Both the position numbers and the translations under genes were made by a program. The notes beneath the pieces were generated by a model. The model ran no database searches and was not told the DNA's origin. It saw only the letters and a program-made list of their open reading frames with translations. DNA of 63,710 nt, the filler included, from Chrysochromulina tobinii (taxonomy: Eukaryota), in assembly GCA_001275005.1 (NCBI GenBank). It is 4 parts of 4 records of this genome, joined end to end, with 100 filler letters (N's around TTAATTAATTAA, not from the genome) between each part and the next. Parts side by side here need not be neighbours in the genome. Positions count along the whole stretch, not along the records: positions 47,171 to 63,710 come from JWZX01001079.1; 3 more parts are not named here. One strand, written 5' to 3'. Below are positions 9,371 to 63,710 of this stretch, piece after piece. The stretch's first letter is position 1, and every line of letters begins with the position of its first letter.

Positions 9371-9685
9371 TTCATGTGCTCGCCGCCGCTCTCGGATAGC
9401 GTTTTCTTTCGAGGATAGCCGTTTGTCCTAACCACCATTACCACCTCACAAACTCCTCCCTGTAAGAATTCTACCCCCCGGTAAGTCAACCTCTGCACTT
9501 ACACTTATCAACCGTTACATCAACGTTCAGCATGCGCAGCAGTAAGCTGTAAAGCTACTGGCGGCGGGAGACAAAGGACAGACGCCCAAGGTCCAGCGTG
9601 CGGATTTCGAAGCGTTGACGGAACGCACGTAAGATGAATGCGTGTAAAGATTCTCCAATACGAGGAAAAACACAGATTCTGCGTC

Positions 9686-12849: not shown

Positions 12850-13932
12850 GGGTTAGGGGGGGTTTCCTATACAAATTGGGGGGAGTTTCCTATACAATAC
12901 GTATCCTGATGTATCCTATATGTATCCTGCATGTATCCTGTATGTATCCTGCAGGATACATGTATCCCGAAAGTATCCTGATGTATCTCAAATGTATCTT
13001 AAATGTATCTTACATGTTCTGTTACAATCCAAGAGAATACATGTATCTTGACATTTTGCATGTATTTAACACGTATCCCAAACGAGTCCAAGATACATTT
13101 TGGGATACACATGAGATACGTTACGATACATGTATCTTGGGCGCTTCCTTGGTGTCACACTGGATACATGTCAAGATACATCAGGATACGTGTATCTTGG
13201 ACTCTTCATCACGATACATTAGGATACACCGAGATACAAAATCACGATACATGTAACTTGGACGCGTCATGACGAATATATGTATATATGTGGGATACAT
13301 GCAAGCATTTATGCGGGATACATGCGGGATACATGTATCTGCAGTGGTTCCAGGATACATAGAGGATACATGCGGGATACATCAGGGATACATCATGAGA
13401 GACATGTATCTCAAATGTATGCAAAGAGGTACGTATCTGAGGTGCAAGATACATGCGAGATACATGCATGTTGCATGATACATGTATCCTCATCAGTATC
13501 CTCAGAGGTGATCAAGATACATACAGGATACATCCGAGATACATAGTGAGATACATAGTGAGATACATGTATCTCAACTGCATCGAGGAGAGAGATGTAT
13601 CTGATATGAAGGGATACATGCGGGATACATGCGGGATACATGCGGGATACATGCGAGATACATGTATCCTCAGTGATAATCAAGATACATGCTGGACACA
13701 TGCGAGATACATGCGGGATACATGCGGGATACATGCACGAGGATACATATCTCGGGGGTTGGGGGATGTAACAGAGCATGTAAGATACATTTGAGATACA
13801 TCAGGATACATTCGGGATACATTCGGGATACATGTATCCTTCAGGATACATGCAGGATACATGCAGGATACATAAGGATACGTATTGTATAGGAAACCAC
13901 CCCCAATTTGTTTAGGAACCCCCCCCTGACCC
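12850..13932. mobile_element. Non-autonomous foldback/MITE-like element with ~175-bp imperfect terminal inverted repeats built from GATACAT/ATGTATC subrepeats
   Basis: Left GGGTTAGGGGGGTTTCCTATACAAATTGGGGGGAGTTTCCTATACAATACGTATCC..TCTGTTACA matches the reverse complement of the right end (..TGTAACAGA..GGATACGTATTGTATAGGAAACCACCCCCAATTTGTTTAGGAACCCCCCCCTGACCC); AT-rich against the host background; no transposase; no TSD found. Confidence 0.8.
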
Positions 13933-43373: not shown

Positions 43374-46300
43374 GTACTGCAGGGTGCCCGACGAGTCGGT
43401 CGCCACGGTGCCGCCGTACGAGTAGCCGGTGATGCCCTCGATCGTCGTGGTGGTCGCCACGTTGGTCGGCGCGTTGCCGAGCAGGATGAGCCCGCCCCAC
43501 TTGCCGCGCTCGCCGAGCGTGATGGCGTTCTCATTCGAGTCCGTGAAAACGGTGACCGAGCTCGATAGCGCCGACTCGGCAAGCACGGACGTGAACGTGA
43601 TCGGCAGCGAGAACGTGCCCGACGCGCTGATCGAGCCACCCTTCAAGACCACGAGCGCCGGAGCGGGATCCGTGTCCATGACGGGCAGCCCATACACGGA
43701 GGTGCCGGCGGCGATGGTGAGCGTGACGCCCGATTGCACGAAGAGCTGCGAGGCGAGCAGATAAGACGTTGTGTTCGTCCAGGATGCGCTTGCGCTGAGG
43801 GCGCCGCCCACCGCGGCCGCCGTGTCGAGGAGGGTAGCAAAGGGAGCGGCTGGGATGCCAGTGCACGTGGATCCAACCATCTTGCCACTGCACGCCAGCC
43901 ACGAGTAGCCGGCGAGCCAGTTGTCCGTCGAGCTGCCGAACGCGCCCTTGCAGGACACCGACGAGAAGAAGGTGTCGCCGTTGGGGGGTGCGTCCTTGCC
44001 GCTCTGGCAGGCCGCACCAGTCTCCATCGGGAGCGGATTGAATGTGCTGCTCAGCCCCGTGTAATCCAGCATGGACGCTGGCACGTTCGTTAGGCCAGGG
44101 TCAATATTGAGTGCCGAGAAGACCCCAGCGGCGCAATTGGTGCCGAGCGAAATGGGGGTCGCGGCGCCATTGATGATGTTGTTCGGCGAGAAGTACAGGT
44201 ACGTGTTGATCGAAACCGACGCGGCGGGCAGCGAAGACGTGCGCGTCTCGGTGCCGCAGTCATTGTTAAGCAAGCCGACGTCCCGGGCGTTCGTGAGCAC
44301 GATGTTGCCAAACTTGCCGCCCGTGCCCTCGCGCAGGCGCATCAGGCCGCCGGTGCGGCCCGAGGCGCCGCCACCGATGATGGTCATCGAGTAGAAGGCC
44401 GGGTGCGAGCGCGGCAGCGAGTTCAGGTTGCTGTTGGTCATCGAGTCCATCTCTGTGCCGTGGTTGCCACCGAAGCCAGTCATCGCAAAGAGGTACTGGC
44501 CGCGGCCCTGGTACCCCTCATCCGTGTCGAAGGCGTCGTCGATCACGAAGAGCGCCGACAGGTACTTGACGTCGACTGTGCCGCCGAAGAACTCGAAGCC
44601 GTCGTCCGCGTTGAACGCCACCTCGCAGTGGTCGACGACGGTGCCGGAGCCGACGCCGCCGAAGGTGATGCCGTTGATCTCGTTGTTCGCGCCCACGATC
44701 GCGCCGCCGTGCCACACGCGCACGTACTGCATGACGCCCGAGCCGTCGGTCGGCACGGAGCCGCCGTACGTGTAGCCGGTGATGCCCTCGATCTGCGTGG
44801 TGGTCGGCATGTTGGTCGGCGCGTTGCCGAGCAGGATGAGGCCGCCCCACTTGCCGCGCTCGCCGAGCGTGATGGCGTTCTCATTCGAGTCCGTGGAGGC
44901 GGTGGCCGAGCTCACGAGCGCCGACTCTGCAAGCACGGACGTGAACGTGATCGGCATCGTCGCGCTGCCCGTCGCCACGAGCGAGCCGCCCTTCACGACC
45001 ACGATCGCCGGAGCGGGGTCCGTGTCCATGACGGGCAGCCCATACACGGAGGTGCCGGCGGCGATGGTGAGCGTGACGCCCGATTGCACGAAGAGCTGTG
45101 AGGCGAGTAGATAAGACGTTGTGTTCGTCCAGGATGCGCTTGCGCTCAGGGCGCCGCCCACCGCGACCGCCGTGTCGAGGAGGGTAGCAAAGGGAGTGGT
45201 TGGGATGCCAGTGCACGTGGATCCAACCATCTTGCCGCTGCACGCGAGCCACGAGTAGCCGGCGAGCCAGTTGTCCGTCGAGGTGCCGAACGCGCCCTTG
45301 CAGCTCACCGTTGAGAAGAAGGGGTCGCCGTTGGGGGGTGCGTCCTTGCCGCTCTGGCAGGCCGCACCAGTCGCCGTCGGGAGCGGATTGAACGTGCTGC
45401 TCAGCCCCGTGTAATCCAGCATGGACGCTGGCACGTTCGTTAGGCCAGGGTCCACTGTGATTGCCGAGAAGGCCCCGGCGATGCAACCGGTGCCGAACGA
45501 AATGGGGGTCGCGGCGCCATTGATGATGTTGTTCGGCGAGAAGTACAGGTACGTGTCGATCGAAACCGACGCGGCGGGCAGCACAGACGTGCGCGTCTCG
45601 GCGCCGCAGTCATTGTTAAGCAAGCCGATGTCCCGGGCGTTCGTGAGCACGATGTTGCCAAACTTGCCGCCCGTGCCCTCGCGCAGGCGCATCAGGCCGC
45701 CAGTGCGGCCCGAGGCGCCGCCACCGATGATGGTCATCGAGTAGAAGGCCGGGTGCGAGCGCGGCTGCGAGTTCAGGTTGCCGTTGGTCATCGAGTCCAT
45801 CTCTGTGCCGTGGTTGCCACCGAAGCCAGTCATCGCAAAGAGGTACTGGCCGCGGCCCCGGTACCCCTCATCCGTGTCGAAGGCGTCGTCGCCCACGAAG
45901 AGCACCGACAGGTACTTGACGTCGACTGTGCCGCCGAAGAACTCGAAGCCGTCGTCCGCGTTGAAGGCCACCTCGCAGTGGTCGACGACGGTGCCGGAGC
46001 CGACGCCGCCGAACGTGATGCCGTTGATCTCGTTGTTCGCGCTCACGCGCGCGCCGCCGTGCCACACGCGCACGTACCGCATGACGCCCGAGCCGTCGGT
46101 CGGCACGATACCGCCGTACGTGTAGCCGGTGATACCCTCGATCTCCAATGGTGACGACGCCGACGTGGGCGCAAGGCCGAGCACGATGATGCCACCCCAC
46201 TTGCCGCGATTCTCGAGAACGGTGGCGGCGAATTGCGAGTCAGACGAGACCGTTTCGCTCGACGCCCTCTCCGGGTTGAGAGCCGTGAAGGTGATGGGCG

Positions 46301-47070
46301 AAGCCGCAGTGCCATCCGCGATGACCTTGCCGCCCTTCAAGACGACGAGAGCGGGCGCAGCGCCACCGATGGCCTTGGGCGTCGAGTAGATCGTCGTACC
46401 AGCGCCGATCGCAACCGTCTTTCCGCTTGGCACAAACACCTGGCACGTCATCACGTAGATGCGGCCTGGCATCCACGTCACGTCAGTCGTGAGATTGTGG
46501 CTCGGAACACCGGCCGGGCACAGGCTCACAGGCTCCGAGGCCTCAGCAGCAGTGGGGCACGTGTACGAGCTCGACACGAAGCCGCCGTGCGTGTTCACGA
46601 ACGACCAGCCGTTGAGCCAGTTCACGCTGCCAAAGGCGCCCTTGAAGTTGACAGCATCGAAGAAAGGGTCAGCAACCGTGGATGCGGCCACGTCCTCCAC
46701 GTCTTGGAACGCCGCGCCGCCGCACACAGGGCGCGGGTCGAGCGGCAGCGTCGCGGACAGTCCACCGCTCAGTTCGAATCGGCTCCAAAGATTGTGCGCC
46801 GACATGAGCAGCGGGTCCGTCTGCACGGCGGTGAAGCTCAGCAGATCAGTCGAGCACTTGCCGCTCTCGGTGCTGAAGACCGAGCCCGTCCCCGAGGGCA
46901 CACCCGAGATGATGTTCTTGGAGCTGAAGTACAGGTAGTTGAGGACGCTGGGCGTGACGAATGACAGCTGCTGGGTGATCAGGTAGTTGCTGCTCCACGA
47001 GGTGGATGAGCACTGGAGGATCTCGACGCCGATGTTGGTCGGGTTGTCCAGGAGCACATTGATGAACTTG
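43374..47070 (-). CDS. Large extracellular-type beta-helix repeat protein with ~450-aa tandem modules; truncated at both ends
   Basis: Open across the whole contig; module GKWGGLILLGNAP..EG..YGG..DGSGVMxYVRVWHGG..NEINGITFGGVGSGT..DDGFEFFGGTV repeats with a 1350-bp period. Confidence 0.85.
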
Positions 47071-47170
47071 NNNNNNNNNNNNNNNNNNNNNNNNNNNNNN
47101 NNNNNNNNNNNNNNTTAATTAATTAANNNNNNNNNNNNNNNNNNNNNNNNNNNNNNNNNNNNNNNNNNNN
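47071..47170. other. Assembly spacer
   Basis: 100-nt N/TTAATTAATTAA/N block. Confidence 0.98.
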
Positions 47171-48183
47171 CCCCCCCGCCGGCAGCCGCACCGGAGAGCG
47201 CCGCGTCGGGCAGCGCCGTGTCGGGCGCGGAGACCGGCGGGCTCGACGCCGCGCTGCGCGCCAATGTCGAGTCACAGCTCGAGCGGCTTCTGGCGCAGCT
47301 CGAAGATCTGGAAGAGCTCAAGGAGGACCTGTCGGAGGAGGAGTACGTCGAACGGCCTCAAATGGCCTCGGAGTGCCTCTTGATTGCCTCTTGATTGCCT
47401 CTGATTGCGTCTGATTGCGTCTGATGGCCTCGGAGTGCCTCTTGATTGCCACTGAGGACCTCTGAGAACACTTTCGAGTGCCTCCCTCATCATCTCTGAG
47501 TGCCTCCCTCATCATCTCTGAGTGCCTCCCTCATCATCTCTGAGTGCCTCCCTCATCATCTCTGATTGCCTCCCTCATCATCTCTGATTGCCTCCCTCAT
47601 CAGGTACAAGGCGACCAAGGAGGACACACTGGCGCAACTCAAGGAGTTCCAAACGTCCCTCGCCAAGATGGCCTCGGGCTCGATGACGCTGCAGTCGAAC
47701 CTCGAAAAGACGCGGCTCGCCGTCTCGGCGGCCGTCTCCGGCGCCTTCCAGACACCCGAGGTCAGCCGGCCCTTCGCCTCCACGCAGCCCGCCGCATGCA
47801 AGTGCTCACCACGGCGCCCTCCCCTCCCGTTTCCCCACAGGTCATCCGGCTCTTCGCCTCCAAGCAGCCCGCCGCGATGCGCCGCCGGCTCGCCGAGATG
47901 GAGCGAGATGTCAAGCTCGGCAAGCTCGCGGCCGCGGCCTTCGACGGCATGAAGTCCGAGATGCTGGTCGCACTCAAGAAGCTCGGGGAGCCGCTCAGCG
48001 CGAGCGAGGAGGCCTTCCTGGGCGCAAACAAGTCCGCGTCCCTCTCGGAGTTTGAGGCGGTCGATGATAATGCGGACCAGGTGAGCCAGCTGCCGGTGAA
48101 CCTCTGATTGCGTCTGATTGCGTCTGATTGCGTCTGATGGCCTCCCTCATCAGGTGAGCCAGCTGCCGGTGAACCTCTCGTGA
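47171..48183 (+). CDS. LZIC: LZIC (leucine zipper and ICAT-homologous) protein, 5' truncated; introns 47343-47603, 47761-47840, 48081-48153
   Basis: Spliced: NVESQLERLLAQLEDLEELKEDLSEEE|YKATKEDTLAQLKEF..AFQTPE|VIRLFASKQP..LKKLGEPLSASEEAFL. Confidence 0.9.
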
Positions 48184-48690
48184 ACGAATCGCCGGTGTGA
48201 ACGAAGTGTGAACCTCTCGTGAACGAAGCGCCGGGAGCACACACCGTGTGCGCATCGTTGACGCGTCGTCGCAGGCGCCGATGACGCGCGTCGTCGTGGG
48301 CAACGAAGCGCCGAAGACGCGTCGTCGTGGGCGCCGTGGGCGCCGAAGACGCGTCGTATTGGGCACAGTGGGCGCCGAAGACGCGTCGACGCGTCTCTGG
48401 GACTGCGGTGATGATGTGGAGATCGAGATCGAGATGGGAGTGCGAGCGAGGGGCAGCCTGGCAACTCTACACAGCGGGGCATCACGCGTTTATTCAGGAC
48501 GGCGAAAAACACAAAACTCGGCTCCAGCGTGTGTGAATCGGTAGGGTCGGAGACTAATTGGGGGGAAGAGTTCAGAAACACATTCACATTCACACATGCT
48601 CGAGTCGGCACCGCGCCTGCACACCGCGCCGCCGAGCCCCACTCACAGGAGGCCACAGTGCACATCATATCAGGGTGCGCAGCGCACGCG

Positions 48691-50388
48691 ATGACGACTT
48701 CCGCGTCACAGTGGATATACCCAAGTTTGGCGCTCAACTGCATCTTCTTCGTGCACCTCGTTGTGCGCGGCAATCTTGTCCCATGTAGTGCTGTGCCATG
48801 TTTCGTGGCGACGCCGTCTGCAAGTTCAGAGACCCCGTCTGCGAGGTCAGCGACCCCGTCTGCAAGCTCAGAGGCCGAATCCATGCCTCCAAGGGACCCA
48901 CAGAGTTTGCCAATCTGGGCCAGGTTCGCACGGTATCCAGGGCCCGATTGGAACAAGCTCTTGGCCGACGAGAAGGTGGAGCGAAAACCCCATCGAACTT
49001 CTCCGCCGACGCCGCCGTATCCGCCGCCAGGGCCCACTCAGACGGTTGGTTCGCCAACTTGCACGCATTTGCTGGAGTGCAGCCTCTCCAAGGGTATGCG
49101 GTCCAAGGTGTACCAAGCGTTCCAGAATGGATACACGCACCGGATCCCAGACGAACTTGGATACGAGAATGGCATCCGAGACCTCGCCGACGGCGGCAGC
49201 GAGCTCCTCGTCCCGATTCGAAAGCAAATCATGCCGCCCGCTGCCAACATCCAGCTTGACTGGAAGCCTGCGCCGTGGCCCACACGCATCGATCTCAACC
49301 ACCTCAACTGGGCAGCCCTTCCAAATGGGGAGAGGTTCCGCGAGTGTGGGAAATCGCATGCACTCACTAATGAAGTGCACTTATACTGCAAGTGCGTGCT
49401 CCGCTTGCGTCGACCGTTTGCTCCTGGAGCCCCCACCACCTCGAAGCGGGCGCCTCAGGAGCCGTCCTTTGTTTGCCCGCAGGTTTTTCACAAAGCAGGC
49501 CCTCTTGTGGAATAAGGACTATTGGCCGGGTGCGGAGCCCTACGACGACATCCCCGACCACGTGTTCGATCGGCCAGACGTGCGGCTGGTGCTTGATCTA
49601 GGTGCCGGCAACGGCAACCTCGCCGTCAACTTGTTCCGGCGATATGGCGATCGCGTCATCACGGTGTCCGCCACGCTCATCGTCGCCGCCGAGGCAGGCA
49701 CGCTCACGCCGCCCTTCCTGCAACGGATGACATGCAACTGATTACATGCTGATGACATGCAACTGATGACATGCAACTGATGACATGCTGATTACAGGCA
49801 CGCTCACGCCGCCCTTCATGCAACTGATCGCGGCGCGTGGCTTCCCCACTGTGGCGGTCGACATCTACTCATTCTTCCCCTTTGGTGAATCAACGTTTGA
49901 CGTGGTCCACACGAGCTGGGTCTATCACAGCGGCTTCACGCGCCACGCCATCATGGAGATGTGAGCACTCGCCACGTGATTCCACCCGGGCCTCACAAAC
50001 GCTGTCACGTGATTCGAACCTGGCCTCACAAACACGCTGTGTGCCTGGCTGAGCGGCGGTACCCGATCGGTTCCGTTGGGCAGGTACTGATTACAAATGA
50101 TTACATGCTGATTACATGCTGATTACATGCTGATTACCGTTGGGCAGGTACCGCGTGCTGCGCCCCGGCGGGTACTTGATCCATACGGTGTGGGATAAGA
50201 TGGCCTCCCTCCGGGGCACGCTGCTCCTCGAGTCGCTCGCCGCGAAGATGAATTGGAAGCTTCTCGCTCATTACGAGACCATGAAGGGGCATAATGTCAC
50301 CAAGGCGAGGCTCCGGGGGGACAAGGTGCCCTACGACTGCTACAAGACCGTCTACCAGATGCCGAGCTACAAGTACTCGAAGAGGTAG
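48691..50388 (+). CDS. Type II membrane class I SAM-dependent methyltransferase; introns 49392-49482, 49698-49797 (GC-AG), 49961-50147
   Basis: N-terminal hydrophobic anchor; VLDLGAGNG, PFMQLIAARG, FPFGESTFDVVH, EM|YRVLRPGGYL assembled across introns. Confidence 0.82.
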
Positions 50389-50732
50389 GAAGTCCTGCAG
50401 GTACGTGTGACTCAATACAGGCAAGGTGTGTAGATTCCAACGGGGGCTTTGAGCCACGACACCGGGTCACTGCAATGCCGATGTTCCACAGGCGACAACG
50501 AGCTATTACGTACAGTACATTTCTGTGTTTCTGTGATTTCGAATCGTCTTGATCTGTTTGTCAGTTGGCTGTTGCGCGGTTGTACGATCGGTAATAGTAC
50601 CTACACCCGAGATAGGCCGATGTCCGAACGAAATAGCGTCGTGCCGAGCGTTTTTCGCGTTCAACGCCCTCTCTCGCGACCTCCTTGGCGGGGAAGGCGA
50701 GCTGCTACAGGCTACTAGCCTCGCCGGAATCG

Positions 50733-53700
50733 ATGGCGCGCAAGACGCACAAAAAGTCGCTGCAAGAGTACATGGAAGAGAATGGGATTGGCGTCGGGGA
50801 TCCGGACGACGATGAGGAAAGCGTGGTGGCGCCCATTGTGCAGGAGACGCCGCGGCTCGTCACACGTGCCCTTCGGACGGAGCACCTGCAGCCGCTCATC
50901 GACCTCGTCTTCTCGGACAGCACCGAGGTGCAACGCAACGCGACGCGCTTGCTCGGCACGCTGGCCCTCAACGCCGATAACATCGACATCCTGATCGACT
51001 CTGGCTCGTTGGGGCCGCTGCTGACGATGGCAGGGTCGACCGACTCGTCGGTGCGGCGCGCGGCGCTTGCAGGCCTCGCGCACATGAGCTCACGCGACGA
51101 CATTCGGACGAAGCTTTGCGCGGTGGCCGGCGGGCTCCAGACGGTGGTCGCCGGCGTCACATGCAGCGACGGGCCGTCGAGGTTGGCCGCGGCCGAGTGC
51201 ATGGCCAACATCGCCACCTCCCTGAAGCTGCGTGGGAGGCTGATTGACAGCAAGGTGGGCGGGCTGCCCGCGCTGCTCTCGCTGCTCACGTCGCGCACGT
51301 CCGAGCTCAAGCGCTGGGGCATGCTCACGCTGCAGCGCCTCGCCGTCTGCCGGAAGACCAATGGTGCCATCATCACCACCAAAGACGACCCCGAAGGCGA
51401 CGGTTACGCGGACGAGCTACTTAAGGCAGGCGTGCTGCAGCCGCTGCTCACGATGCTCCGGGCGGGCACGATGAGTCTCGAGGAGGACCTGCGCACGCAG
51501 GCCATGTGCACCGTCTACTCTCTGGCCGACGCGAATGAGGAGATCAAGAAGAAGCTCGGCGAGCACCCGGTGAGGGCCGAGATTTCCCTGAATGACGAAC
51601 CCCTGATGAAACTGTGACGGAACTGTGACGAGCCCGATAGCTCGGCGAGCGCACCCGGTGTGAATGCCTCGACGAGAGCACACGGGCGAGTGTGCCATGG
51701 AGCGCCTTTGAGTGATGAGTGACGTTGATGATGAGTGGCGCTGATGAGTGTCTCTTGATCGCCTCTTGATCTTCCCTTGAGAGCCCCTGATGGCCCCTGA
51801 TGGCCCCTTGAGGGCCCCCTGAGAGCCTCCGATGGCCCCTTGAGGGCCATGGCCCCAGAATTGCAGTGGTCATCAGAATTGCAGGTGCTCGTGAAGGCCA
51901 TTGTGGGCTTGCTGACGACCACTGATTGCCTCTGATGACCACTGATTGCCTCCCTCATCAGGTGCTCATGAAGGCCATAGTGGGCTTGCTCACGCTGGAC
52001 GACCACGCGGGCACCGGCGCGACGCAGCGCGAGGCCTGCCGCACCGTCCAGCTGCTCGCGACGCGCGCCGACAATGTGTATCGCCTCCTCGGCGCTGGCT
52101 TGATCGTTTCACTCTCGATGCTCGCCCGCACCGAGAATCTCATCAAGAAGCAGTTTGCGAGCACGATGCTGCTACGGGTCGCTACGGAAGCGGGCTGCCG
52201 GCGCTCGCTGCTCGATGCCGGTGGCGCGCGCACGCTGTGCTTCCTCTGATTGCCTCTGATTGCCTCTGATTGCCTCTGATTGCCTCTGATTGCCTCCCTC
52301 ATCAGGTGGCGCGCGCACGCTGTGCTTCCTATGCCGCCCGTCGCTTCCTCGCAAGGTCGTCCGTCCCGCGGCGAACGCGATCTCACTGATGTGCAGCTCG
52401 GCCGAGTGCGTGCCGTCGCTGCTCGACACGGGCGCCGGCTCGGTGCTTGCGACGCTCGCGAGCTCGTCCGACCCGGAGATGCTCCTCGGCGGCTGCCAGG
52501 CGCTCGCCAACATGCTCGCGTGCATGGCGGAGGAGGCGGGGACGGTGGCCAAGGCGGTGAACCGCGCGGGCAGCCCGGTTGTGAACCGCGCGGGCAGCCC
52601 GGTTGTGTCGCGCCCCACCTCGCCAATCTCCCAAACCTCGGCCGAAGAAGACGAGGAGCGCCGTCCCGGGCGGGGCGCCACCGAACCGGAGGGGGCGCCG
52701 TCCCGGGCGCCCCCTCCCAAACCGGAGGGGGCGCCCACGAGCGCCGTCTCGAGCGCCGACCCGCTCGGCCGGGTGCGCGAGGCCGTCCGAGTGACCGACC
52801 AGCTGCATGCTGATGGCCTCCCTCATTGCATGCTGATGGCCTCCCTCATCAGGTGCGCGAGGCTGTCCGAGTGACCGACCAGCTGCTTCAGCAAGGCGCC
52901 CTCTCCGTCTTCCTGTCGGCCGCGACCTCCTCCGATCGCCAGCTGCAGCTGCATGCCTCCCGCGGCCTCAAATTCATCGCGATGCGCTCGCCACTCTTTG
53001 CGCGCGTCCTCGCCCGCAAGGGCGCCGCGCGCGCCCTCGCTGCGCTGCTGGGTGCCGCGCGTGAGGAAACGCTCCGGAACGCAGTAACGGCCCTCCACCT
53101 GATCACCACGGCGCTCTGTGAGGGCGTTGGGCGCGAGCCTCTCACGGCCAAGCGTCTCTCGACGGTGCGCGGAGGGCAGCTCTGATGGCATGCTGATTGC
53201 ATGCGGATTACATGCTGATGGCATGGTGATTACATGGTGATTACATGCGGATTACATCTCTGATCGCGTGCTGCTTGCCCATCTGCTCGCGTGCTGCTCG
53301 CCTCCCTCATTGCATGCTGCTCGCCTCCCTGATCAGGTGCGCGGGGTGCTCGAGCTCGGTGTGGTGGGCACACCCAAGGAGCTCTGGGCGCGCCTGAATG
53401 AGGACGGTGGGCTGCCCGCGGCGACGCTCCTTCGGCTCGCATGCCACTTTGAGGGGCTGCACGCCGAGGCGGGGGAGCGCTCGCGAGCGATACTCGAATT
53501 GCTCAAGCCGGGCTTGCTGCAGTCCCTCGACATCGACGACCCAAGACGCGCCAGCCAGTCGGCGAAGGCGATCGCTGAGCGCCGAGGGAGGAATAAATCC
53601 ATCGCCAAGGTCCAGAACCTGTTCCGCCTTTCTCGCAGCCTGAAGCCGGCCGCGGCCGACCCGTTCACCGCGTTCAGCCGACCGACTACCTCGGCGAACG

Positions 53701-54435
53701 CCACGGGCGCCGCCTCGGGCGCGGCCTCGAACTTTGCGTCGCTCGTGCGCGCGGCCAAGCTGGGCAACGGGCTCGTGGCGAACGACTCGCCGCGCTGGGC
53801 CAAGGCGTGGGGAGGCGCCTTTGGGGCCAAGGCGGGCTCGGCCGCGGCTGCCTCGGTACTGAACGCGCAAGCGACAGGCGCGGACGCGATCTCGAAGCTA
53901 ACCCTAACCCTAACCCTAACCCCAACCCTGACCCTAACCCTGACCCTGACCCTAACCAGGCGCGGACGCGCTGTCGAAGCTCAAGGAGGCCGCGGCCCAC
54001 GCACGGAAGGCGTCCCAAGAGGCCGGTCCCAAGTTCAAGTCGCTCGCGGCCGCTGCAGGCGCCCACGATGGCGCGGGGAAGCGGACGCTCTTCGCGATCC
54101 TGCACCAGCCTCGCCCGCCCGCGACGGCGCGTCCCGAGGCGAGCGGCGCACGCGCGCGAGCGGTCAGCCTCCTGGGAGCAGAGACCGCCTCGTCCTCAGC
54201 CGAGCCAGCCCAATCCGAAGCGCCAGGTGCGCCAGGAGCGCCGGCGGTCACCAAAGAGAGGCACACCGGTAGGCCTCCTGCTTTGGGATTGTGGCTCGGC
54301 GGCGCCGTCGGCACGAGCAGCGCTGCTGGAGCAGCTGCTGGGGCGATGGTGGTGGCGGCGCCCGAGAAGGAGAAGCGGATCTCGGCAGTGCGGCGCGCTC
54401 AGATGACTCTCGAGGCCCAGGATCTGACGCTTTAA
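50733..54435 (+). CDS. Armadillo-repeat protein; introns 51570-51961, 52221-52305, 52773-52852, 53165-53336, 53878-53959 (GC-AG)
   Basis: ARM repeats (LQPLIDLVFSDSTEVQRNATRLLGTLA, GGLPALLSLLTS); the five introns give a continuous frame to TAA at 54433-54435. Confidence 0.82.
53900..53959 (+). repeat. Interstitial telomere-type (CCCTAA/CCCTGA)n array forming the body of an intron
   Basis: AACCCTAACCCTAACCCTAACCCCAACCCTGACCCTAACCCTGACCCTGACCCTAACCAG. Confidence 0.92.
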
Positions 54436-54660
54436 GCGGGCGGGATTTCTTTTTTAGCTTGTCGACTAGTCAGAACTCGGACACTTGTACGGTAGGTGTG
54501 CGGTGTCCACAAAGATGTGTAAAAGATGTGCGGTGTTCACAAAATCCATCCCCCACCCCCTTCCCCCCTACGCATGCAAGAGTTTCCCACAGCCTGTGTT
54601 CACGCCGTGACTCGCGCGAAGGCGTGATTAGGCGCTCGCGGCCGAAAACAAGCGGGGGAA

Positions 54661-55881
54661 ATGCCCCGACCACCGCCACCGCCGGCTATGGACGTCGAGG
54701 ACATCCTCGTGCGCATGCGGCAGATGCTCAAGAAGCGTGGTGCGGTGGGCATCAGGGGACTGACGAGAAACTTTCAGATCTGCGACACCGACAAATCGGA
54801 GAAGCTCAACCTCGCCGAGTTGACTAAATGCGTCAACTTGTGCAAGCTCGACCTCTCGCAAGAGGAGGTCCGCGCACTGCACCGCCATTTCGATTCGTCC
54901 GGCGACGGACTGGTGAGCTTCGACGAGTTCGTCAAGACAGTGCGCGGTCGGATGAGCGAGCCACGCAAGAAGCTCGTGATCAAGTGCTTTGAGGCTCTCG
55001 ACCAGGCAGGCGACGGCAACGGCCAGCTGTCGGTGGCCGACTTGAAGCCGTACTTCAACGTCGAGCACGATCCTCGCTTCCTCACGGGCGAGAAGACGGC
55101 ACACGAGCTCCTCCAGGAGTTTGTCGACGGGTTCGAGCGAGGCCAGGGAGGCGGAGACGGCGTCATCGGCATCGACGAGTGGATCGGCTATTATGAGGAG
55201 CTGTCAGCGGGGATCGACGACGACGACTACTTCGGTGTGATGCTAGTGAACGCGTGGAGTGCACTGAAGAAAAAAGGGCCGAATGGCGAGGAGGTGCCAG
55301 CCATCCAGTATGTGTGCGAGGGCGACATCGACGTGCTCGAGCAGATCCTTCGGAAGAACATCTTCCAAAAGTCGGTCGGTACGAATGAGGTGCGTGCGCT
55401 GAAGGAGACGTTCAAGCGCTTTGACCAGGACAATAGCGGCGAGGTCAACTTTCGCGAGTTTTGTCGAGCGATGGAGTGCTTCGGGCTCTCCGTGTCGCAG
55501 CCTGGTCAAAAGGGCTCTGGAGGCGTGCCGCCCGATGTGCTGCGCGGCCTCTTCAACCGTTACAACACTGACGGGTCCGAGTGCATCAGCTACCTCGAGT
55601 TTACGAGCGGGCTGTTCCAGCGTGAGGCGGAGGCGCGGAGCAGCGACCCCGCGTTCACCACTGGCAACGGCGCCAATCTCACGCTGCCAAACCTCGTGCG
55701 CGACTATGATGCCGTGGCCGCCTCGGCAGCAGGGCTCGCACCACCGCCGCGCTGTATGCCTGACACGCGGAAATCACCCCTCCTCCGACCCGACGGTAAA
55801 GGGGGGAGCCTTGGCAATTACCCAGTGCGGCCCGATCGCGTCGTACGTCCCGAAGAGCGGGCGAAGGGCTTCTTCCGGTAA
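54661..55881 (+). CDS. Calcyphosin-like multi-EF-hand protein
   Basis: RGAVGIRGL..F...D, FDSSGDGLVSFDEF..VRGRMSEPRK, LDQAGDG, DGVIGIDEWIGYYEELSAGIDDDDYF, plus an extra EF pair FDQDNSGEVNFREF. Confidence 0.9.
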   Translation: MPRPPPPPAMDVEDILVRMRQMLKKRGAVGIRGLTRNFQICDTDKSEKLNLAELTKCVNLCKLDLSQEEVRALHRHFDSSGDGLVSFDEFVKTVRGRMSEPRKKLVIKCFEALDQAGDGNGQLSVADLKPYFNVEHDPRFLTGEKTAHELLQEFVDGFERGQGGGDGVIGIDEWIGYYEELSAGIDDDDYFGVMLVNAWSALKKKGPNGEEVPAIQYVCEGDIDVLEQILRKNIFQKSVGTNEVRALKETFKRFDQDNSGEVNFREFCRAMECFGLSVSQPGQKGSGGVPPDVLRGLFNRYNTDGSECISYLEFTSGLFQREAEARSSDPAFTTGNGANLTLPNLVRDYDAVAASAAGLAPPPRCMPDTRKSPLLRPDGKGGSLGNYPVRPDRVVRPEERAKGFFR

Positions 55882-56335
55882 CGGAGAGGAGCGGAGTCAG
55901 TCGGTAACCCTAACCGGAAGCGCATACCGCGATGTTCGTCGAGCTGGTTGCCTTATATAAGCTCTGAGTCTCTGTACACTCTCGGAGCTGCGCCTCGGAT
56001 CGTAAGAAGTAGCGGGGACTAGTGGTTGAGCTTATAGTTTCAAAATCCGGACTTATAACGTAAAACGTAAAAGTCAAAACGGCATATCTCGGGATACCGG
56101 TTACCGCTTCGTTCGATCGCAATTGTGAATTGACTAGCGTATACGACCGTATTACGTTAATAGCGGGTCCGAGTGTAGACGCTGCCTGTCGTCTCCCTGC
56201 AGGAGGCGTGAGTAGGAGATGCACACATCGGGTGATGACGTGAGGCGCGGTCGAGAGACGTGCCGCAGCTGCACACCTGTGCGTCTAGAATGATCTTGAA
56301 TGATCGTGCGCGTCGTCTGGCGGCCGCGGCGTGGG

Positions 56336-59300
56336 TCATTGCCGCAGCGTGACATAGGGCGGCTCATCGTTGGCGCAGCGGCAGAAGCCGCATGGCACGA
56401 TCGCCATCAGATCGGCTGGAGGGCGGAGAGTGCCCTCCTTCCCGCGGCACTGGTAGCACGCAGAGGGCAGGTTGCAGTTGTTTGCACGGCCCGTGTCGCT
56501 TCCTAATTTGGCACGGCCCGTGTCGAGCGCGGCCGACTGGTTGTTCCAGAGCTGCTTGAACTCGTGCGGCAGGTGGTCGATGGTCTTGGCGCACCTGATG
56601 AGGGGGTGGGGTGTCGGAGGCCATCAGACGCAATCAGCGGCCATTAGCGGCCATCAGCGGCCATCAGCGGCCATCAGCGCACTGGTAAGAGTAGACGTTC
56701 CACTCGGCCTGCTGGCTGAACCAGCACTGTGCATACTCGGGGTGTCGCGCCATGATGTCTCGTCGGTTGCGCGCAAATTGGGCACAGTTCCATGCAGTGT
56801 AGAGGCCAGTGAAGATCGGGTCGTGGCGCGCGCGCTGGTTGCCCGGGTGCTTGACCACAGAGTCGCCCGTGACGAAGTGGAACGTGAGCCGCGGCGAGAG
56901 CAACGCCATCCGACAGCCCGCGTGCGCATGCAACGCCTGCATCAGGTCCGTTGCGATCATTGAGACGCCCACCTGATGAGGGAGGCAATCAGTATGCCAT
57001 CAGAGAGGCAATCAGCATGCCATCAGAGACGCCCACCTGATGAGGGCTCGCCATCATTCGCCATCATTCGCCATCATTCGCCATCAATCGTCATCATTCG
57101 CCATCATTCGCCATCAATCGTCATCATTCGCCATCATTAGTCATCAATCGTCATCACCATTGTGAAACCGAGTGAGAGCTGCGGCACCCAGCGGCGCGGG
57201 AAGGTCCAACAGTCGTGACCTGGATGGGCGAGGCCCGTCCCACGCCATCCGAGAGCTTGCTCCACGCCGAAGGTGACGGGAGCGTGCTCGTACTCCTCTC
57301 TGATGAAGCTGATTGGAATGTCGGGCATCAGCTGTGCCAACGGGTAGAACGGGTAGGGGGAGGGGCGAGAGGGAGGGCAGGGGAAGGGGGTGACGAGGAG
57401 GGAGGTAACCTCAGGAGCACACCCAAAGCACATCGGGAGCTCATCGGGAGCTCATCGGGAGCTCATCGGGAGCTCATCGGGAGCTCATCGGGAGCTCATC
57501 GGGAGCTCATCGGGAGCTCACCTGCAGCTGACGCGCGAGCTTGAGGTAGAACGGCGCCTGCACGCCAATGTCGATGTTTGAGTACGTCAGGTGCTCTCCC
57601 TCGCCCTTGAGGTAGCCGGCGTACCTGATGAGGGAGGCAATCGGATGCAATCTCCTGAGGGGCGGCGTAACTGATGAGGGAGGCTTTTTGATGCGAGCGG
57701 CCATCCGAGGCCATCGGTGGCAATCAGCAGGCAAACCACGTACAGGATCATGTTGAGGAAGGGGAGCTTGGCGTGATGACGGAAGCTCGGGAGCAGCGTC
57801 GCGACCGACACGTTGAGCAGCGCGACGGCGAAGCCCTGCTGTGCGCACTGCGGCAGCCGGGCAGCGTCTTCGGGGAACATGGCGCAGACCACATCGACGC
57901 GCACGCCCTGGGTGTTTGCGAGGGCGACGGCGTGCGAGATGGAGGCGATGGTGATCTCTTGCGCGCGCGCATGCTCGGCGTCGTGCTCGGAGTAGAACGG
58001 GTTGATCACGTGCGTGATCGAGATGTTCTGCGCGCGCCGCGGCGGCGCCGCACGCGCCGCCCACTCGGAGAACCAATGCTCAGCACGGCGCGGCGGCTCG
58101 GGCTGCAGCACGCGCACGACTGGCTGGCGGACGAATTCTTGGGTCCACGCGCCGCAGCAGCGTGGCGGCTCGGCGCTCGACTTTGCCTCGCGGAGTCGTG
58201 TCTCGATGAAGGTCTTGCGCACCTGGACAGAAGGAGGCGCGCCATCAGCGGCAATCAAGGGAGATCGCACCTGGACAGAGGGGGCGCGCCATCAGCGGCA
58301 ATCAAGGGAGATTGCACCTCGTCCGACCAGGCGGAGGTCGTGCCACCGTCCATCGGCGCTGTCGCATTGCTCTTCTTCTTGGGCTTCGCCTTGAGGGAGA
58401 GGGTGAAGGCGCGCTGTACCGAGCTGATGGGTACCTCAAGGAACTCGGCCAACGGCGCCGGGTACCTGAAGCAAGGGGGGCGCCGTGGTGGGCATGGGTG
58501 CCGTTAAGGCGCCGTGGTGGGCATATGCATGCCGTGGCGGGTACTTGAAGCAAGGGGGGCGCAATCAGCGGCCATCCGCGGCAATCGGCTGTCGTCAGTG
58601 GAACTCAGAGGCACTTAGAGACACACAGAGGCACTCAGTGGCACACAGAGGCCGTCAGAGGCCATCAGAGGCACTCAGTGGCACCCAGAGGCGCTCAGGT
58701 GCACTTCGGCGCACCGCTCAGGGCGCAAAAGCATGTCCGTGTAGTTGACGACGCGGTACTCCTCCGCGCGGAGCATCTGCAGCTGTGAATACATCTGGTC
58801 GAGCTGTGACAAGAAGAGGCTCACCTGTGGTTGGCGTAGTGCGTGGCGCCGTGGTGAGCACATGCATGCCGACGCGTGCACGCGCGCCGTGGTGAGCATG
58901 CGCATGCCGACGCGTGCGCTCGCTGTGACATGAGGCGAGGCGAGGCGAGGCGGCTCTCACCTGCTGGATATCATCAGAGGTCATCAGGGAGGTCATCAGA
59001 TGTCATCAGCGAGGCGAGGCGGCTCTCACCTGCTGGATATCATCAGAGGTCATCAGGGAGGTCATCAGATGTCATCAGCGAGGCGAGGCGGCTCTCACCT
59101 GCTTGTGCAGCTTGAAGGTGCGGCCAGCCCGCCGCCAGATCTTTGGGAGCCCGCGGTTGTTCATCGACATGATCGCGTCGATCGGGTCGCGGTACAGCAC
59201 GATCACCTTGAGCCGCACGCCGAGCAGGTCGCACATGTACACGATGTCCGCCAGGTCGGGGTAGTGGGTTCCGTCCTCGGTCTCGTTCGACGAGCGAGAA

Positions 59301-60166
59301 AAGGGATACGAAAACATCTGGCCTACGGGCTGGAAGGAGCCGTTATTGGATCGGCCGTCCAGCAGCTGGCCCGCCAGCTGCTGCTGCATCCCGCTGATCC
59401 ACGAGCAGTGCCGCTGACGCGAGATGCGGAAGCACGTGCGCGCGCAGAAGGCGGGGTGCTTGTGGTGCGAGTGGGCCTGACGGACCCATTCGGCGAAGGC
59501 CTCGAGGGCGGCCCAGAACGTGGCTGGGTCGTGGTGCTTCGGGTCCCACCAGAGCGACTGGAACACCTGCTCCTGCACCAGCGACATGGGCATCAGCTCG
59601 GGCAGCCGCATCATGAGCGCGGTGATGAAGTGGTGGCCTGTGCCCTCGGCGCCGGCGACGAAGACAAGCTGCCGTTGGCTATCGCTGAGCGGCTTGCTGT
59701 GGTCGGCGGGCTGCTGGGGCTTCACGTACGGCCGCCAGAAGGATGTGTCGAGCGGCGTCTCGATGGACGCGCGCCGCTTCACGACCTCGAGGAAGGCCTC
59801 CTGCTGCGCCTCGGCCGAAAGCCGCTGCGGAGGCGGAGGCGGAGGCGGGCTGCTGAGATCGGGCGGCGTTGGAAACCCGGTGGGCGAGAGGGAGGAGGAA
59901 AAGGAAGATGGTGATGATGATGAGGAGGAGCTGATGTGGTCCACGGTTGGGAGCAGAAGCTCGTGCTGCAGCAGCACGCACGACAGCGCCGCAGCCGAGA
60001 GCGACGCGGTCGCGAGCATCATGAGCTTGACGACGCCGAGTGGCGCCTCGCACTCGCGATCGGCGCGACGGTCGTGGCGGGCATGCTGGGCGGGGAGCAG
60101 GCGGCTGGAGGAGGCGGTGGAGGAGGTGGTGGTGGCGGTGGCGGCTGCGTCGGAGAGCGTGGGCAT
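56336..60166 (-). CDS. Type II membrane protein with a sulfotransferase-like domain and a second, possibly glycan-modifying, domain; introns 58825-59098, 58466-58714, 58223-58317, 57625-57743, 57332-57521, 56973-57157, 56595-56682
   Basis: TM anchor; PAPS-loop-like FVAGAEGTGHH and KVIVLYRDPIDAIMS; frame restored across seven GT-AG introns to TGA at 56336. Confidence 0.75.
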
Positions 60167-60390
60167 AGAGGCGGAGCCAAGTCGGTGTGAAGGGGTGAAG
60201 AGATTTGTTGAGGGTCACCCCTTTACACACGAGAGCACGAATTACATGTATGGCTCCTCTGCTCAAGAGTCGCTACGCACGAAGTGTGGTGGCGAACCTT
60301 TGATACCGAAGATGCTCGGCAACTGTTTGGGGTTCGCAAGTTAGCATGCGATTATAAGTTGTTGATCGCAAGTGTTGGAGGATACTTTCC

Positions 60391-60463
60391 TTCCCTATAG
60401 TCTAGTTGGTTAGGATAACCCGCTTTCACCGGGTCGACCTGGGTTCGAGTCCCAGTGGGGAAA
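60391..60463 (+). tRNA. tRNA-Glu (anticodon TTC)
   Basis: Acceptor TTCCCTA/TGGGGAA; D-arm; anticodon stem ACCCG/CGGGT with CT-TTC-AC loop (60425-60427); T-arm CTGGG-TTCGAGT-CCCAG. Confidence 0.93.
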
Positions 60464-60824
60464 AAAAAAAACTTGCTTCCTTTGTCAACCTCTTTTGCAC
60501 CTGTCCGGATCCGACGAGTCCCAGTGGGTCCGGATCCGTGCGAAATGACGCGCCCCGGGCGGCCTCCCCGCCCCCGCGCCCCCGGGTGCGGGCGGTGGGC
60601 CCGCCCCCGCGTTGGGGTCGTGGCTCGTGCCGCGCCGCGGGGGGAACCATGCCGCATGCGGGGATGGGGGAACTCTTACTAAACCGGGCGGCGTGGGATC
60701 TAGAGCATCTTTGGCCCGTTCGATTACGATTTCGTCCTATAAGTATCACCAAAACAATGCGCAGCATGCGTGTATGGGGCACGGTAGCCGCGACGCCCCT
60801 CGTGTGTCCTCTGAGTCCACCTTC

Positions 60825-63710
60825 TCAACTGAGAGAAGTTTTCTCGAGCGCGCCGCTCAGCTTGCTTGTTGCCCCATCGGCGCCGTCGCGGGCGGCGCGC
60901 GCCGCGCCGAGCGCACTCGAGAGGTGGATGATCCACAAGTTACGTTCCTCCTCAGTCGGGGCGGCAAGCACGACGCCGCCGTCGGGCGCGCCGTCCCGAG
61001 CGGTGAGGCGGAACGCGTAGGGCAGATTGTCCGACGGAGGCTGCGACGACCAGTCATCAGAGGTCGTCAGAGGTCATCAAAGGTCATCAGAGGTCATCAG
61101 AGGTCATCAGGGCAGATTGTCCGACGGAGGCTCTGGGGAAATGGGTGCTACGACCAGTGGGGCAGGGGAGGGGGCGCCCAGGACGACGCACGGTTGAGGC
61201 GCGCGTCAGCACAGATCAGAACGCGGCGCCGCCACGCGCGCTCGCGGCACTGTGGGGAGATCGGGGAGATCGATGGGAGATCGATGGGAGATCGATGGGA
61301 TAAGAGGGGGTCGCGTCGTCCCGGGCAGCGCACCGTGGCTTGCTCCACCCGATCGAAGCCGGAGAGCGGTACGATGCCGCGCGCGTGCTGCGGAGGGTCG
61401 TCGGCGTTCTGGTAGTACACGATCGTGCCCTCGTCGCGCAGGCGGAAGTGGCGAGCGACCCAATCCCGTGCCTGCCCTGTCTCCGCCTCGCTCCGCTGCG
61501 CAATGTGCACCTGATGAGGGAGGCAATCAGCATCCCATCAGAGAGGCAATCAGAGGCCATCCTGATCGAGCAGTCTCCGCCTCGCTCGCACTGATGAGGG
61601 AGGCAATCGGCATCCCATCAGAGATGCACTCGGCACCTTGGAGGCTCGCTTATAGAGGAGGCCGCTCAACTCGGTGCCTCGCGATGTGGCGTCTTCGGCC
61701 GCACTGGCGGAGCTACTCGGTACTTTGATGACCTCTGATTGCCTGGCATGAGTGGAAACTCCCCCGCCGGCGGTCGCGGCGGTCGCGACGGGCAGCGGCG
61801 AAGAGGGCGGCGCCACGGCGGACGAGGAAGCCGACAGCTGCGCGCCACAGGCGCAGAGGACGCGTATCCAGTCATCGCGTTCCCGCGCCGAGTCCGACGC
61901 GAGGTGGTACCTGATGAGGGAAGCCATCCGAGGTCATCAGAGGTTATCAAGAGGCAATCAGGTGAGCGGTGCCTGATGAGGGAAGCCTTTAGGGAAGCCA
62001 TTCCTCGGAGGTCACATCAGAGGCACCACTCGGCAGGTCATCCGAGGTCATCCGAGGTCATCCGAGGCCATCCGAGGTCATCCGAGGTCATCCGAGGTCA
62101 TCAGGGGCCATGCGTACGTCCGATTGCTCGTGTGCACCGCAAACGAATAGTGGCGGGCAAGCGAATTCTCTCCCTCGCCATGAGGCTGGATGATCAGTGG
62201 CGTGGGCCGCGCGCCGGCGCCATTGCTCATCACGGCGCTATGGCTCGACTCGCGACCACCGTTGGTGCCGCCGCCGCCGCTGCCGTGCGCCACGGCCGCG
62301 CCCGCACCGCCGTGGTGAGCACTTGCATGCGCGGGAGCGGCCGCGCCCGCACCGCCGTCGGGTGCCGTGGCGCCATAGTGGGCGCCGTAGTGGGCGCCGC
62401 TGCTCAGCTCGGCGCCGCTGTCAGACTTGCCGAACGCCCTTACACTGGCTGACGGGCTCGAGCCGCCGCTGATCGAGATGACGCCGAGAGAGAGGGGGCG
62501 GGGCGTCGTGGTGAGCGCTTGCATGCAACGCACGCCATCAGAGGCAATCAACGCACCTGCTCGAGCGGCACCCACTCCAACTTCTGATGAGGGACACAAT
62601 CACATGCAATCAGAGGCACTCAAGGCACCTGATCGAGATGACGCCGAGAGGCTGGAATGGGTTGGACATCTCGGCCGCGTAGTAGTAGAAGAGCTCGCCG
62701 TCGCACAGGCAAAAGTAGCGCCTCTTCCAGGACGGGACCCGCCGCCCCTTTTTGTAGAGATGGCCCTGCGAACCGAGGCCACGGGATGCGATGAGATGAA
62801 TTGGGAGATGCGATGAGATGCATTGGGAGATGCGATGAGATGCATTGGGATGCGATGAGATACGCCGAGTGACCACTCCGGGGTCACTCGGCGTCAGAGT
62901 GGTCACTCGGCGTCACTCAGCCGTCACTCAGCCGTCACTCTGCGGCCACTCAGCGGCCGCTCTGAGGAGCTCTCAGCGGCACCCACCTGCTTGGTGCACA
63001 CTCGATGGAGTGACTGGTGCAGCGCCGTCTCGTCTTCGCCGAACTCGGCGCCGTGTTGGGCGTCTGCCTCCACAAAGTAGCAGAAGAGCGACGAGGCCGC
63101 CAGCGCCGGGATGGCCACGCACTGCTGCAGGTAGCGCTCGAGCGCCACGCGTCGCTCCTCGACGAAGCTCGGGTGAAGGTTGCCGAAGGCGCGCTTCGCT
63201 GGGAGGGCCTGCGGCACTAGCGGGCCGAACTCCTTGCGCAGCAGCTGGTCCAGCAGGTTGAAGTGCTTGTACCTGTGGGGAGAGGCGAGGGCGCCGTGGT
63301 GAGCGCGTGCATGCACGGCAGGCCATCAGCATGCAATCAACGTACCGTCGCTCGGAGCGAGAGAGGGCGCCGGGGTGAGCGCTTGCATGCACGGCAGGCC
63401 ATCAGCATGCAATCAACGTACCGTCGCTCGGATCGCAGCGTCGTCTGCACGCCGTGCACGAGCAGCACGGAGTCGACCAGGTACGTGACGTACTCGTTGC
63501 CATGCCCACCCTCGCGCTGACGCTGGGTACCGGCGAGGCGCACCGAGTGGAGCACAACGTCCTTTGATCGCGCACGCAGCTCGGTGCCCGTCGGCGACAA
63601 GGGCGGCCCTCGCCCCTCGAGCGCCGTGGTGAGCGCCTCGTCGCCCGCGTGCATGCCCACACCGATCGTGAGCGCTGTGGTGAGCAGCCCGCCGCCGAGC
63701 TCACCACGGC
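60825..63710 (-). CDS. PX + two PH domain protein, 5' end beyond the window; introns 63273-63421, 62766-62986, 62469-62628, 61911-62117, 61511-61636, 61041-61333
   Basis: PX: YVTYLV..ERR|YKHFNLL..LPAKR..FVEERRVALERYLQ; PH1: GHLYKKGRRVPSWKRRYFCL..RT|YHLASDSARERDDWI; PH2: SGLLYKR..WVARHFRL..LAAPTEEERNLWI. Confidence 0.87.

Follow-up and report, generated by a model that had tools for sequence, protein, structure and literature searches.

It is still unsettled how new spliceosomal introns originate where no transposon can be recognised, and the question is raised by a GC-rich stretch of 63,710 nucleotides from the haptophyte Chrysochromulina tobinii (GenBank assembly GCA_001275005.1; four joined parts of four records, of which positions 47,171 to 63,710 come from JWZX01001079.1; this whole stretch is referred to below as the window). 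A motif of about 25 nt with a CTCAC centre recurs there, and an original prediction, made from the sequence alone, held that it lies in sense orientation in three unrelated genes and must have been copied from a donor elsewhere. Our favoured reading, to which we assign a probability of roughly 0.55, is that the motif represents the core of a 3'-splice-site cassette of about 45-50 nt, spread when template switching guided by microhomology copies it out of introns already present, often in the same gene, and part of the target is copied a second time.

The family was sampled by a metagenome scan with the exact core, which returned at least 143 stretches from culture assemblies and lake samples. 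After 24 redundant loci had been merged or dropped, 120 regions (220 kb) plus the window formed the working set; it holds 272 core copies at up to three mismatches, 16 of them near edges, leaving 256 that were scored. Read from 5' to 3', the unit consists of a variable linker (most commonly CTGCCTT), the 23-nt core, whose elements include GCATGCAAGTG and CTCAC, a C-rich tract of 14-28 nt and a terminal CCCCACAG. The core lies upstream of 119 of the 124 C-rich CCCACAG acceptors. The GCTCA positions of the core are almost invariant, and the A of CTCAC, invariant in 172 acceptor-bearing copies, stands 23-37 nt ahead of the acceptor; this distance and near invariance make it the likely branch point.

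The 5' part of the intron is frequently host sequence. In 102 of the 256 copies the cassette is preceded by a GT and a duplicate of the start of the downstream exon, which together form a hybrid intron; 70 copies have an acceptor but no detectable local duplicate, and 84 have no acceptor by the scoring rule. In the clean hybrids (n=88) the 5th-95th percentile range is 13-39 nt for the duplicate and 65-92 nt for the whole intron. Taken together, the exon duplicates span 10-47 nt, which is not the fixed length of a classical target site duplication (TSD), and they are about 4-5% diverged from the source exon, their divergence being weakly correlated with that of the core (rho 0.18, p 0.09). A flanking-repeat score of 15 or more, the cut-off used, was reached by 97 of 159 exact-core copies. 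Among the controls, none of the 473 mismatched pairs reached it, and of the 209 random sites 28 did. Acceptor-less solo copies often lie between direct repeats too, with a period divisible by three in 14 of 26. A fixed 3' end, expected if the motif is copied, is found in the acceptor-bearing copies but not in the 84 others. There are no terminal inverted repeats (TIRs), the 5' ends being host-derived or variable and the folds lacking terminal pairing; nor was a conserved RNA fold found in the six stretches folded (z of -0.56 to +0.71 in five, -2.1 in the exonic copy described below).

A copying event is recorded in a pair of orthologous loci (L018 and L134) with flanks about 98% identical. L134 is longer by 81 nt, of which 33 nt duplicate the exon and 48 nt are a cassette with CCCCACAG at its end, and L018 is the empty site of this insertion at the DNA level. 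Since the 48 nt are non-local, the insertion is not purely a duplicated local exon.

Within the window, the seven core copies originally listed (47794-47816 on the + strand, the others, below, on the - strand) all proved correct in position and strand. Seven matches at up to two mismatches compare with 0.51 expected, and seven were reached in none of 100 shuffles. The three host genes were confirmed as LZIC/ICAT (+), a gene without a Pfam match (-) and a PX-PH-PH gene (-), and a CCACAG end is indeed present in three host introns, at 47840, 58825 and 63273. The supposed intronic setting holds for most copies but not for 62308-62330, which is exonic because RNA contigs run through it (one contig spans 62114-62490, and the frame is open). 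Similarly, the motif recurs seven times, but the copies at 63292 and 63368 are halves of a 76-nt tandem duplication and so are not independent. The set was incomplete: a degenerate pair at 58481-58532 had been overlooked. Nor had it been noticed that exon sequence is duplicated, that one copy is exonic and that donors are local. All eight window copies lie beyond 47 kb, a region where other intron repeats cluster as well. The features are as follows; the RNA joints derive from RNA contigs of four runs of long-RNA libraries, and the joints listed are part of all.

47761..47840, + strand: LZIC hybrid intron of 80 nt, GT..AG, phase 0, between TPE and VIRLF (from homology)
47761..47795, + strand: 35-nt copy of the downstream exon start (47841-47875) with 3 mismatches, giving the GT donor
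47794..47816, + strand: core in its consensus form, with a putative branch A at 47808
47817..47840, + strand: C-rich tract and CCCCACAG acceptor of the LZIC intron
58466..58714, - strand: inferred intron with two degenerate cores (58510-58532 and about 58481-58497), borders from the reading frame
58825..59098, - strand: inferred 274-nt intron with cores 58885-58907 and 58847-58869 and a CCACAG end, from the reading frame only
62293..62358, - strand: exonic in-frame 45-nt insertion with core 62308-62330 (RNA contig, open frame)
62469..62628, - strand: 160-nt intron with core 62504-62526 (RNA joint in 2 of 4 runs; both=22)
63273..63421, - strand: 149-nt intron with cores 63368-63390 and 63292-63314 and a CCCCACAG end (RNA joint in 4 of 4 runs)

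The RNA joints of the last two introns and, for LZIC, homology indicate that the cassette introns are spliced precisely; when the LZIC flanks are joined in silico, 132 of 132 amino acids match the C. tobinii LZIC protein. No RNA joint for the LZIC intron, for 58466-58714 or for 58825-59098, which carries 69-nt tandem repeats in its 5' part, is among the joints listed. The final 2 nt of the LZIC exon duplicate overlap the core. The intron that hosts the 62504 copy ends not in CCACAG but in a duplicated exon end, its acceptor coming from a 22-nt duplicate of the end of the upstream exon. The exonic core at 62308 lies between 21-nt direct repeats (62338-62358 and 62293-62313), the first 6 nt of the repeat overlapping the core end, and its 45-nt insertion, again divisible by three, places HASAHH in a PH-domain linker; a peptide search with the HASAHH repeat returned the orthologue only.

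The LZIC intron provides a second case of presence and absence. The predicted proteins of five relatives extend from within the upstream intron into the downstream one, where they stop, and nonetheless TPEVIRLF is unbroken in all five, with 2-4 differences per 132 amino acids. Because these proteins behave like unspliced DNA yet cross the junction without interruption, intron 47761-47840 appears to be missing from the relatives. Thus, two introns are absent in close relatives, one as judged from DNA (L018 lacks both the 48 non-local bases and the 33-nt duplication) and one from predicted protein, and they have therefore been gained recently, which bears out the claim of copying from a donor elsewhere. 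Other related loci differ by tandem duplication of a whole intron (L039/L079) or have a core copy in common (L044/L114). This comparison of relatives shows that the cassette family is still making new introns.

Several further observations concern the fate of such copies. Exonic open-frame copies, often encoding HASAHHGA and sometimes repeated, occur at L008, L058, L122, L127 and L044, and their number varies among relatives (P0034, P0098). Whole hybrid introns form tandem arrays with abutting AG|GT and polymorphic copy number (L060, L074, L039/L079). Unspliced cassette introns have been mistranslated as ..DDLPCMQVLTTA.. in protein databases (P0035-P0038, P0080-P0096); MQVLTT is present in 22 of the 98 proteins retrieved, and P0089 appears chimeric through the cassette.

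The sense bias claimed for the window extends to the family: with orientation called by a codon model trained on the window genes, 202 of the 256 copies are sense, 8 antisense and 46 undecided. Acceptor-less copies are 58 sense to 6 antisense, but many of them are local derivatives. On inspection the copies at L074 and L120 are truly antisense, the rare one at L074 lying between direct repeats. The notion of a single master copy, however, had to be abandoned, as there are several 5' extensions and 69 tract variants in 75 introns, and the donor is often an intron close by; a near full-length form is met with in a few loci (L100, L137, L015). The new cassette of L134 is identical, bar one variable base, to the last part of the following intron, which lies 524 nt downstream. 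Moreover, a same-locus copy is among the top three matches for 24 of 96 copies, compared with 6.1 after permutation (maximum 15 in 300 permutations), and rare variants are shared by 9 of 43 within-contig pairs as against 108 of 1476 between-contig pairs (p=0.004). L023 (1478-1544), in a gene which we take to be FtsH-like from a motif, holds a whole hybrid intron that was apparently transposed 1.2 kb upstream within this gene, since its 5' part derives from a conserved exon located that far downstream; it is the only whole-intron insertion without a long duplicate, most copies having duplicates of 10-47 nt. Microhomology is enriched at the junctions, although splice-site selection is a confounder: the exon end matches the cassette end by at least 1 nt in 70 of 88 cases, compared with 32% at random exonic GT, and exon bases past the GT are shared (at least 4 nt) in 5 of 7 donor-recipient pairs, the background being 19%. 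The same-locus matches, the rare variants, L023 and the donor-recipient pairs all point to a preference for nearby templates.

From these footprints we infer a template-switching step, in which a nascent strand would leave its target where a few bases match, for instance at (A)G|GT, copy about 48 nt of the end of a donor intron (as unspliced RNA or its DNA, with about even odds between the two) and rejoin in such a way that the exon start is written twice, 13-39 nt being re-copied. A spliceable intron would result where the exon duplicate begins with GT, and selection would then likely retain those products that measure about 65-92 nt and have a donor fit for use, or exonic ones that stay in frame. 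Because most family acceptors precede GT, donors would tend to land at GT again and so perpetuate the family. We favour template switching because it is the simplest account of the long variable duplicates, the microhomology, the local donors and the exonic by-products. Template switching and repair-associated gain are among the proposed routes of intron gain (PMC3443670).

Several results weigh against this account. The absence of the LZIC intron is documented by predicted proteins, not DNA, and these proteins may come from partially spliced transcripts. In a sister lineage (about 95% amino acid identity) the 63273 intron is present at the same position and in the same tandem arrangement, read through in the protein, with the core kept and the flanks changed; introns of this type are older than the LZIC and L134 gains, and selection therefore probably acts on the core too. 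Copies at one locus mostly bear no particular resemblance to each other (a similarity of 12 or more in 6 of 152 within-locus pairs), common variants are without local concordance (0.32 versus 0.31), and identical long extensions on unlinked loci indicate that copying in trans also occurs and calls for explanation. The exon-end microhomology is predicted equally by splice-site selection, the shared exon prefix comes from seven donor-recipient pairs, three of them from one locus, and a directional donor scan gave one clear case amid many background matches. As the loci were picked by the exact core and strains are mixed, the family frequencies apply to the sample and not genome-wide. Finally, no enzyme for cassette copying was found: reverse transcriptase and transposase Pfam domains are absent from the 36 open reading frames (ORFs) and exons of the window that were scanned.

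The searches for the motif in other genomes place it in one lineage. In 596 Gb of prokaryote genomes the core has one isolated match, without cassette context; viral contigs gave no match to the longer-extension pattern and a single host-like fragment with the core pattern, and phage blastn returned chance matches. Rfam yielded nothing credible on the cassette loci, and none of 31 matches in a motif scan for U2 small nuclear RNA is U2. The motif is lineage-specific and belongs to a Chrysochromulina tobinii-like haptophyte.

Other origins of the cassette can be weighed against the same observations. It might be the antisense of a tRNA-Ala-like short RNA (the head of a short interspersed element (SINE) or a tailless retropseudogene), inserted by the reverse transcriptase of a long interspersed element (LINE) with long variable target duplications; only the antisense would give a branch point and an acceptor, so that only the antisense would survive, and the fixed CAG end would correspond to the 5' end of the RNA. 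The reverse-complemented core with a 4-6 nt gap has 98 of 123 matches in tRNA genes (73 tRNA-Ala; gap 5 in 116), but this gap model was designed with tRNA-Ala already in mind, and the GCATGC palindrome common to both inflates the match. Compared with all E. coli tRNAs, each of 7 queries had an antisense tRNA as its best match (Ala-GGC in 6 cases; reached by 0-34 of 300 shuffles), whereas a second tRNA set gave no significant match for 6 of the 7; both sets are bacterial. Per-copy scores hardly exceed those of shuffles (27.6 versus 26.8), a generic tRNA profile places 76 of 80 matches elsewhere, and Rfam finds no tRNA on the cassette loci. CGAACC, the complement of the T-loop/B-box, is nevertheless the top hexamer 12-34 nt upstream (8 loci versus 1.67 expected). 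The duplicate length of 13-39 nt also agrees with a variable TSD of about 8-35 nt, as described together with target-complementary ends for tailless retropseudogenes (PMC5322556), and the L074 copy fits as well. Same-gene donors and the sense bias of acceptor-less copies (58:6) are left unexplained, and no partner LINE was seen. We regard this origin of the copies as unlikely; the tRNA-Ala route could, however, have founded the family, with template switching as its later mode of spread.

Half reverse splicing, which would fit the hybrid introns, is another conceivable mechanism. Here, a spliceosome with a family lariat would join the 3' end of the intron to R-loop DNA at AG|GT, after which the free upstream DNA end would be extended on the template, doubling the exon start, and be joined near the branch region. 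An R-loop model has been published (PMC4540971), and this version predicts the AG|GT junction, a duplicate starting at the insertion point, same-gene bias and sense orientation, which at 202:8 is observed although not absolute. It also predicts a 5' boundary near the branch, and 45 of 57 acceptor-bearing non-seed anchors reach the GCATGC boundary or at most 7 nt beyond. Difficult to reconcile with it are the 84 copies without acceptor, some of which end at the core with microhomology (62308), introns in which the duplicate supplies the AG (62469-62628), the existence of antisense copies, and the exon bases past the GT shared by donor and recipient, which are beyond the supply of a lariat. Whole introns inserted without long duplication, typical of reverse splicing, are represented by L023 alone, which resembles whole-intron transposition, and we judge this mechanism quite improbable. 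Still less credible is that nothing is copied, i.e. that exon tandem duplications, an accepted gain route (PMC3443670), make introns while the motif is a selected branch-point or enhancer consensus of old introns. The nearly invariant GCTCA and the core kept in the orthologous intron of the sister lineage agree with this, but the 48 non-local bases gained in one step between orthologues about 98% identical largely refute it, exonic in-frame copies bear the full core, and long 5' extensions recur on unlinked loci. Equally remote is a decayed DNA-transposon introner of the miniature inverted-repeat (MITE) type; introners with a 4-bp TSD are reported from metagenome-assembled genomes of marine Chrysochromulina (PMC9860276), and the near full-length form in a few loci could be seen as its remains. 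Against it speak the duplicates of 10-47 nt, the variable ends, the lack of inverted repeats at the intron termini and the fact that 5 of 6 stretches fold no better than their shuffles. Replitrons, being transposase-bearing elements with terminal repeats (PMC10288648), were set aside.

The cassette family can be compared with several known systems. In the acceptor-carrying introners and introner-like elements (ILEs) of Symbiodinium and Polarella (classes 4/5 and 6/8/10), the repeated element likewise provides the acceptor and the target duplicate the donor, the introns are precise and exon starts resemble donors (bioRxiv 10.1101/2020.10.14.339549; PMC9860276). Those introners have fixed TSDs of 3-8 nt and often TIRs, whereas here the duplicate of 10-47 nt accounts for between one third and one half of the intron, TIRs and a single master are absent and same-gene donors are favoured. 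The introner elements of Micromonas and fungal ILEs, for which reverse-splicing models exist, are also sense-oriented, polymorphic for presence and free of an encoded protein, but they are whole-intron copies without long duplications (PMC4540971), while in our family it is mostly the 3' half that is moved, and some copies are exonic or, rarely, antisense. Gain by duplication or filler DNA shares the duplicated AG|GT exon segment that becomes a splice site, the direct repeats around filler and the homology to other introns; there, however, the filler is random or the insert a pure duplicate, as opposed to one recurring splice-signal cassette, taken from other introns, at more than 100 loci. 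Tailless retropseudogenes and tRNA-derived SINEs have in common with the cassette a short insert, a variable TSD of 8-35 nt, a target-complementary end and a possible tRNA-like antisense (PMC5322556), but differ in that a tRNA origin of the cassette is not established, the orientation bias is strong and no partner LINE was seen.

In the introner screen of Gozashti et al., similarity is demanded at both the 5' and the 3' intron boundary (PMC9860276), and half-copied introns of the cassette type would therefore be missed. In our family 102 of 256 copies have host exon as their 5' part and only a few loci have a 5' end in common; it lacks the traits that define introners, namely a fixed short TSD, a TIR and similarity at both ends. 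C. tobinii is named once, among the rows listed of a table of the genomes surveyed in the supplement of PMC9860276, and the portion of the main text of PMC12130899 available to us makes no mention of haptophytes. A literature search, whose coverage did not extend to bioRxiv supplements and most subscription journals, found no description of the cassette family. Half-copied introns may be a blind spot of screens in other organisms too.

This family is active and resides in a culturable alga, and the length of the duplicates, the microhomology and the identity of the donors are footprints that can be read; therefore, template-switch, reverse-splicing and retroposition models become separable by comparison of strains. 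A bolder, and doubtful, extension of the favoured template-switching account is that of an enzyme-free "half-intron" replicator, whose 3' ends would template their own insertion from unspliced RNA, take donors from host exons, seed further introns in genes that already bear some and add HASAHH-type peptides, having begun as an antisense tRNA-Ala fragment. If true, the template-switch route of intron gain, proposed long ago, would thereby gain evidence at the population level.

A second and commoner intron-end cassette, TGATTGCC..CCTCATCAG with 10-11-nt repeats, is found at 47344-47604, 48081-48154, 61511-61636, 61911-62117 and elsewhere in the window. Here, too, the exon start is duplicated, and there are hybrids of this cassette with the core; it probably arises by the same process. 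Both cassettes are nearly absent from positions 1-45000, where long uninterrupted ORFs prevail, and dense in 45001-63710, so that the genes of the window look either intron-poor or intron-rich. Partial core-like matches in coding sequence (LTTA twice) at 63622-63685 (-) and 63697-63710 (+) are remnants or chance.

The window contains other features of note. A tRNA-Glu(TTC) gene lies at 60391-60463 (+), with a short partial look-alike beside it (about 60500-60530). The region 48683-49960, without a Pfam match, is matched at about 95% identity by RNA contigs with joints of their own, and is either an expressed paralogue or a multicopy element. Proteins encoded in the intron-poor part include a member of the PyShell (pyrenoid shell) family (9638-10825, +) and a decapeptide-repeat protein of 1523 amino acids (1932-6500, -). 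A telomere-like (CTAACC)x10 repeat is situated within a contig at 53898-53957, and an 11-nt satellite of the GATACAT type, at 12897-13881, lies in a low-GC stretch.

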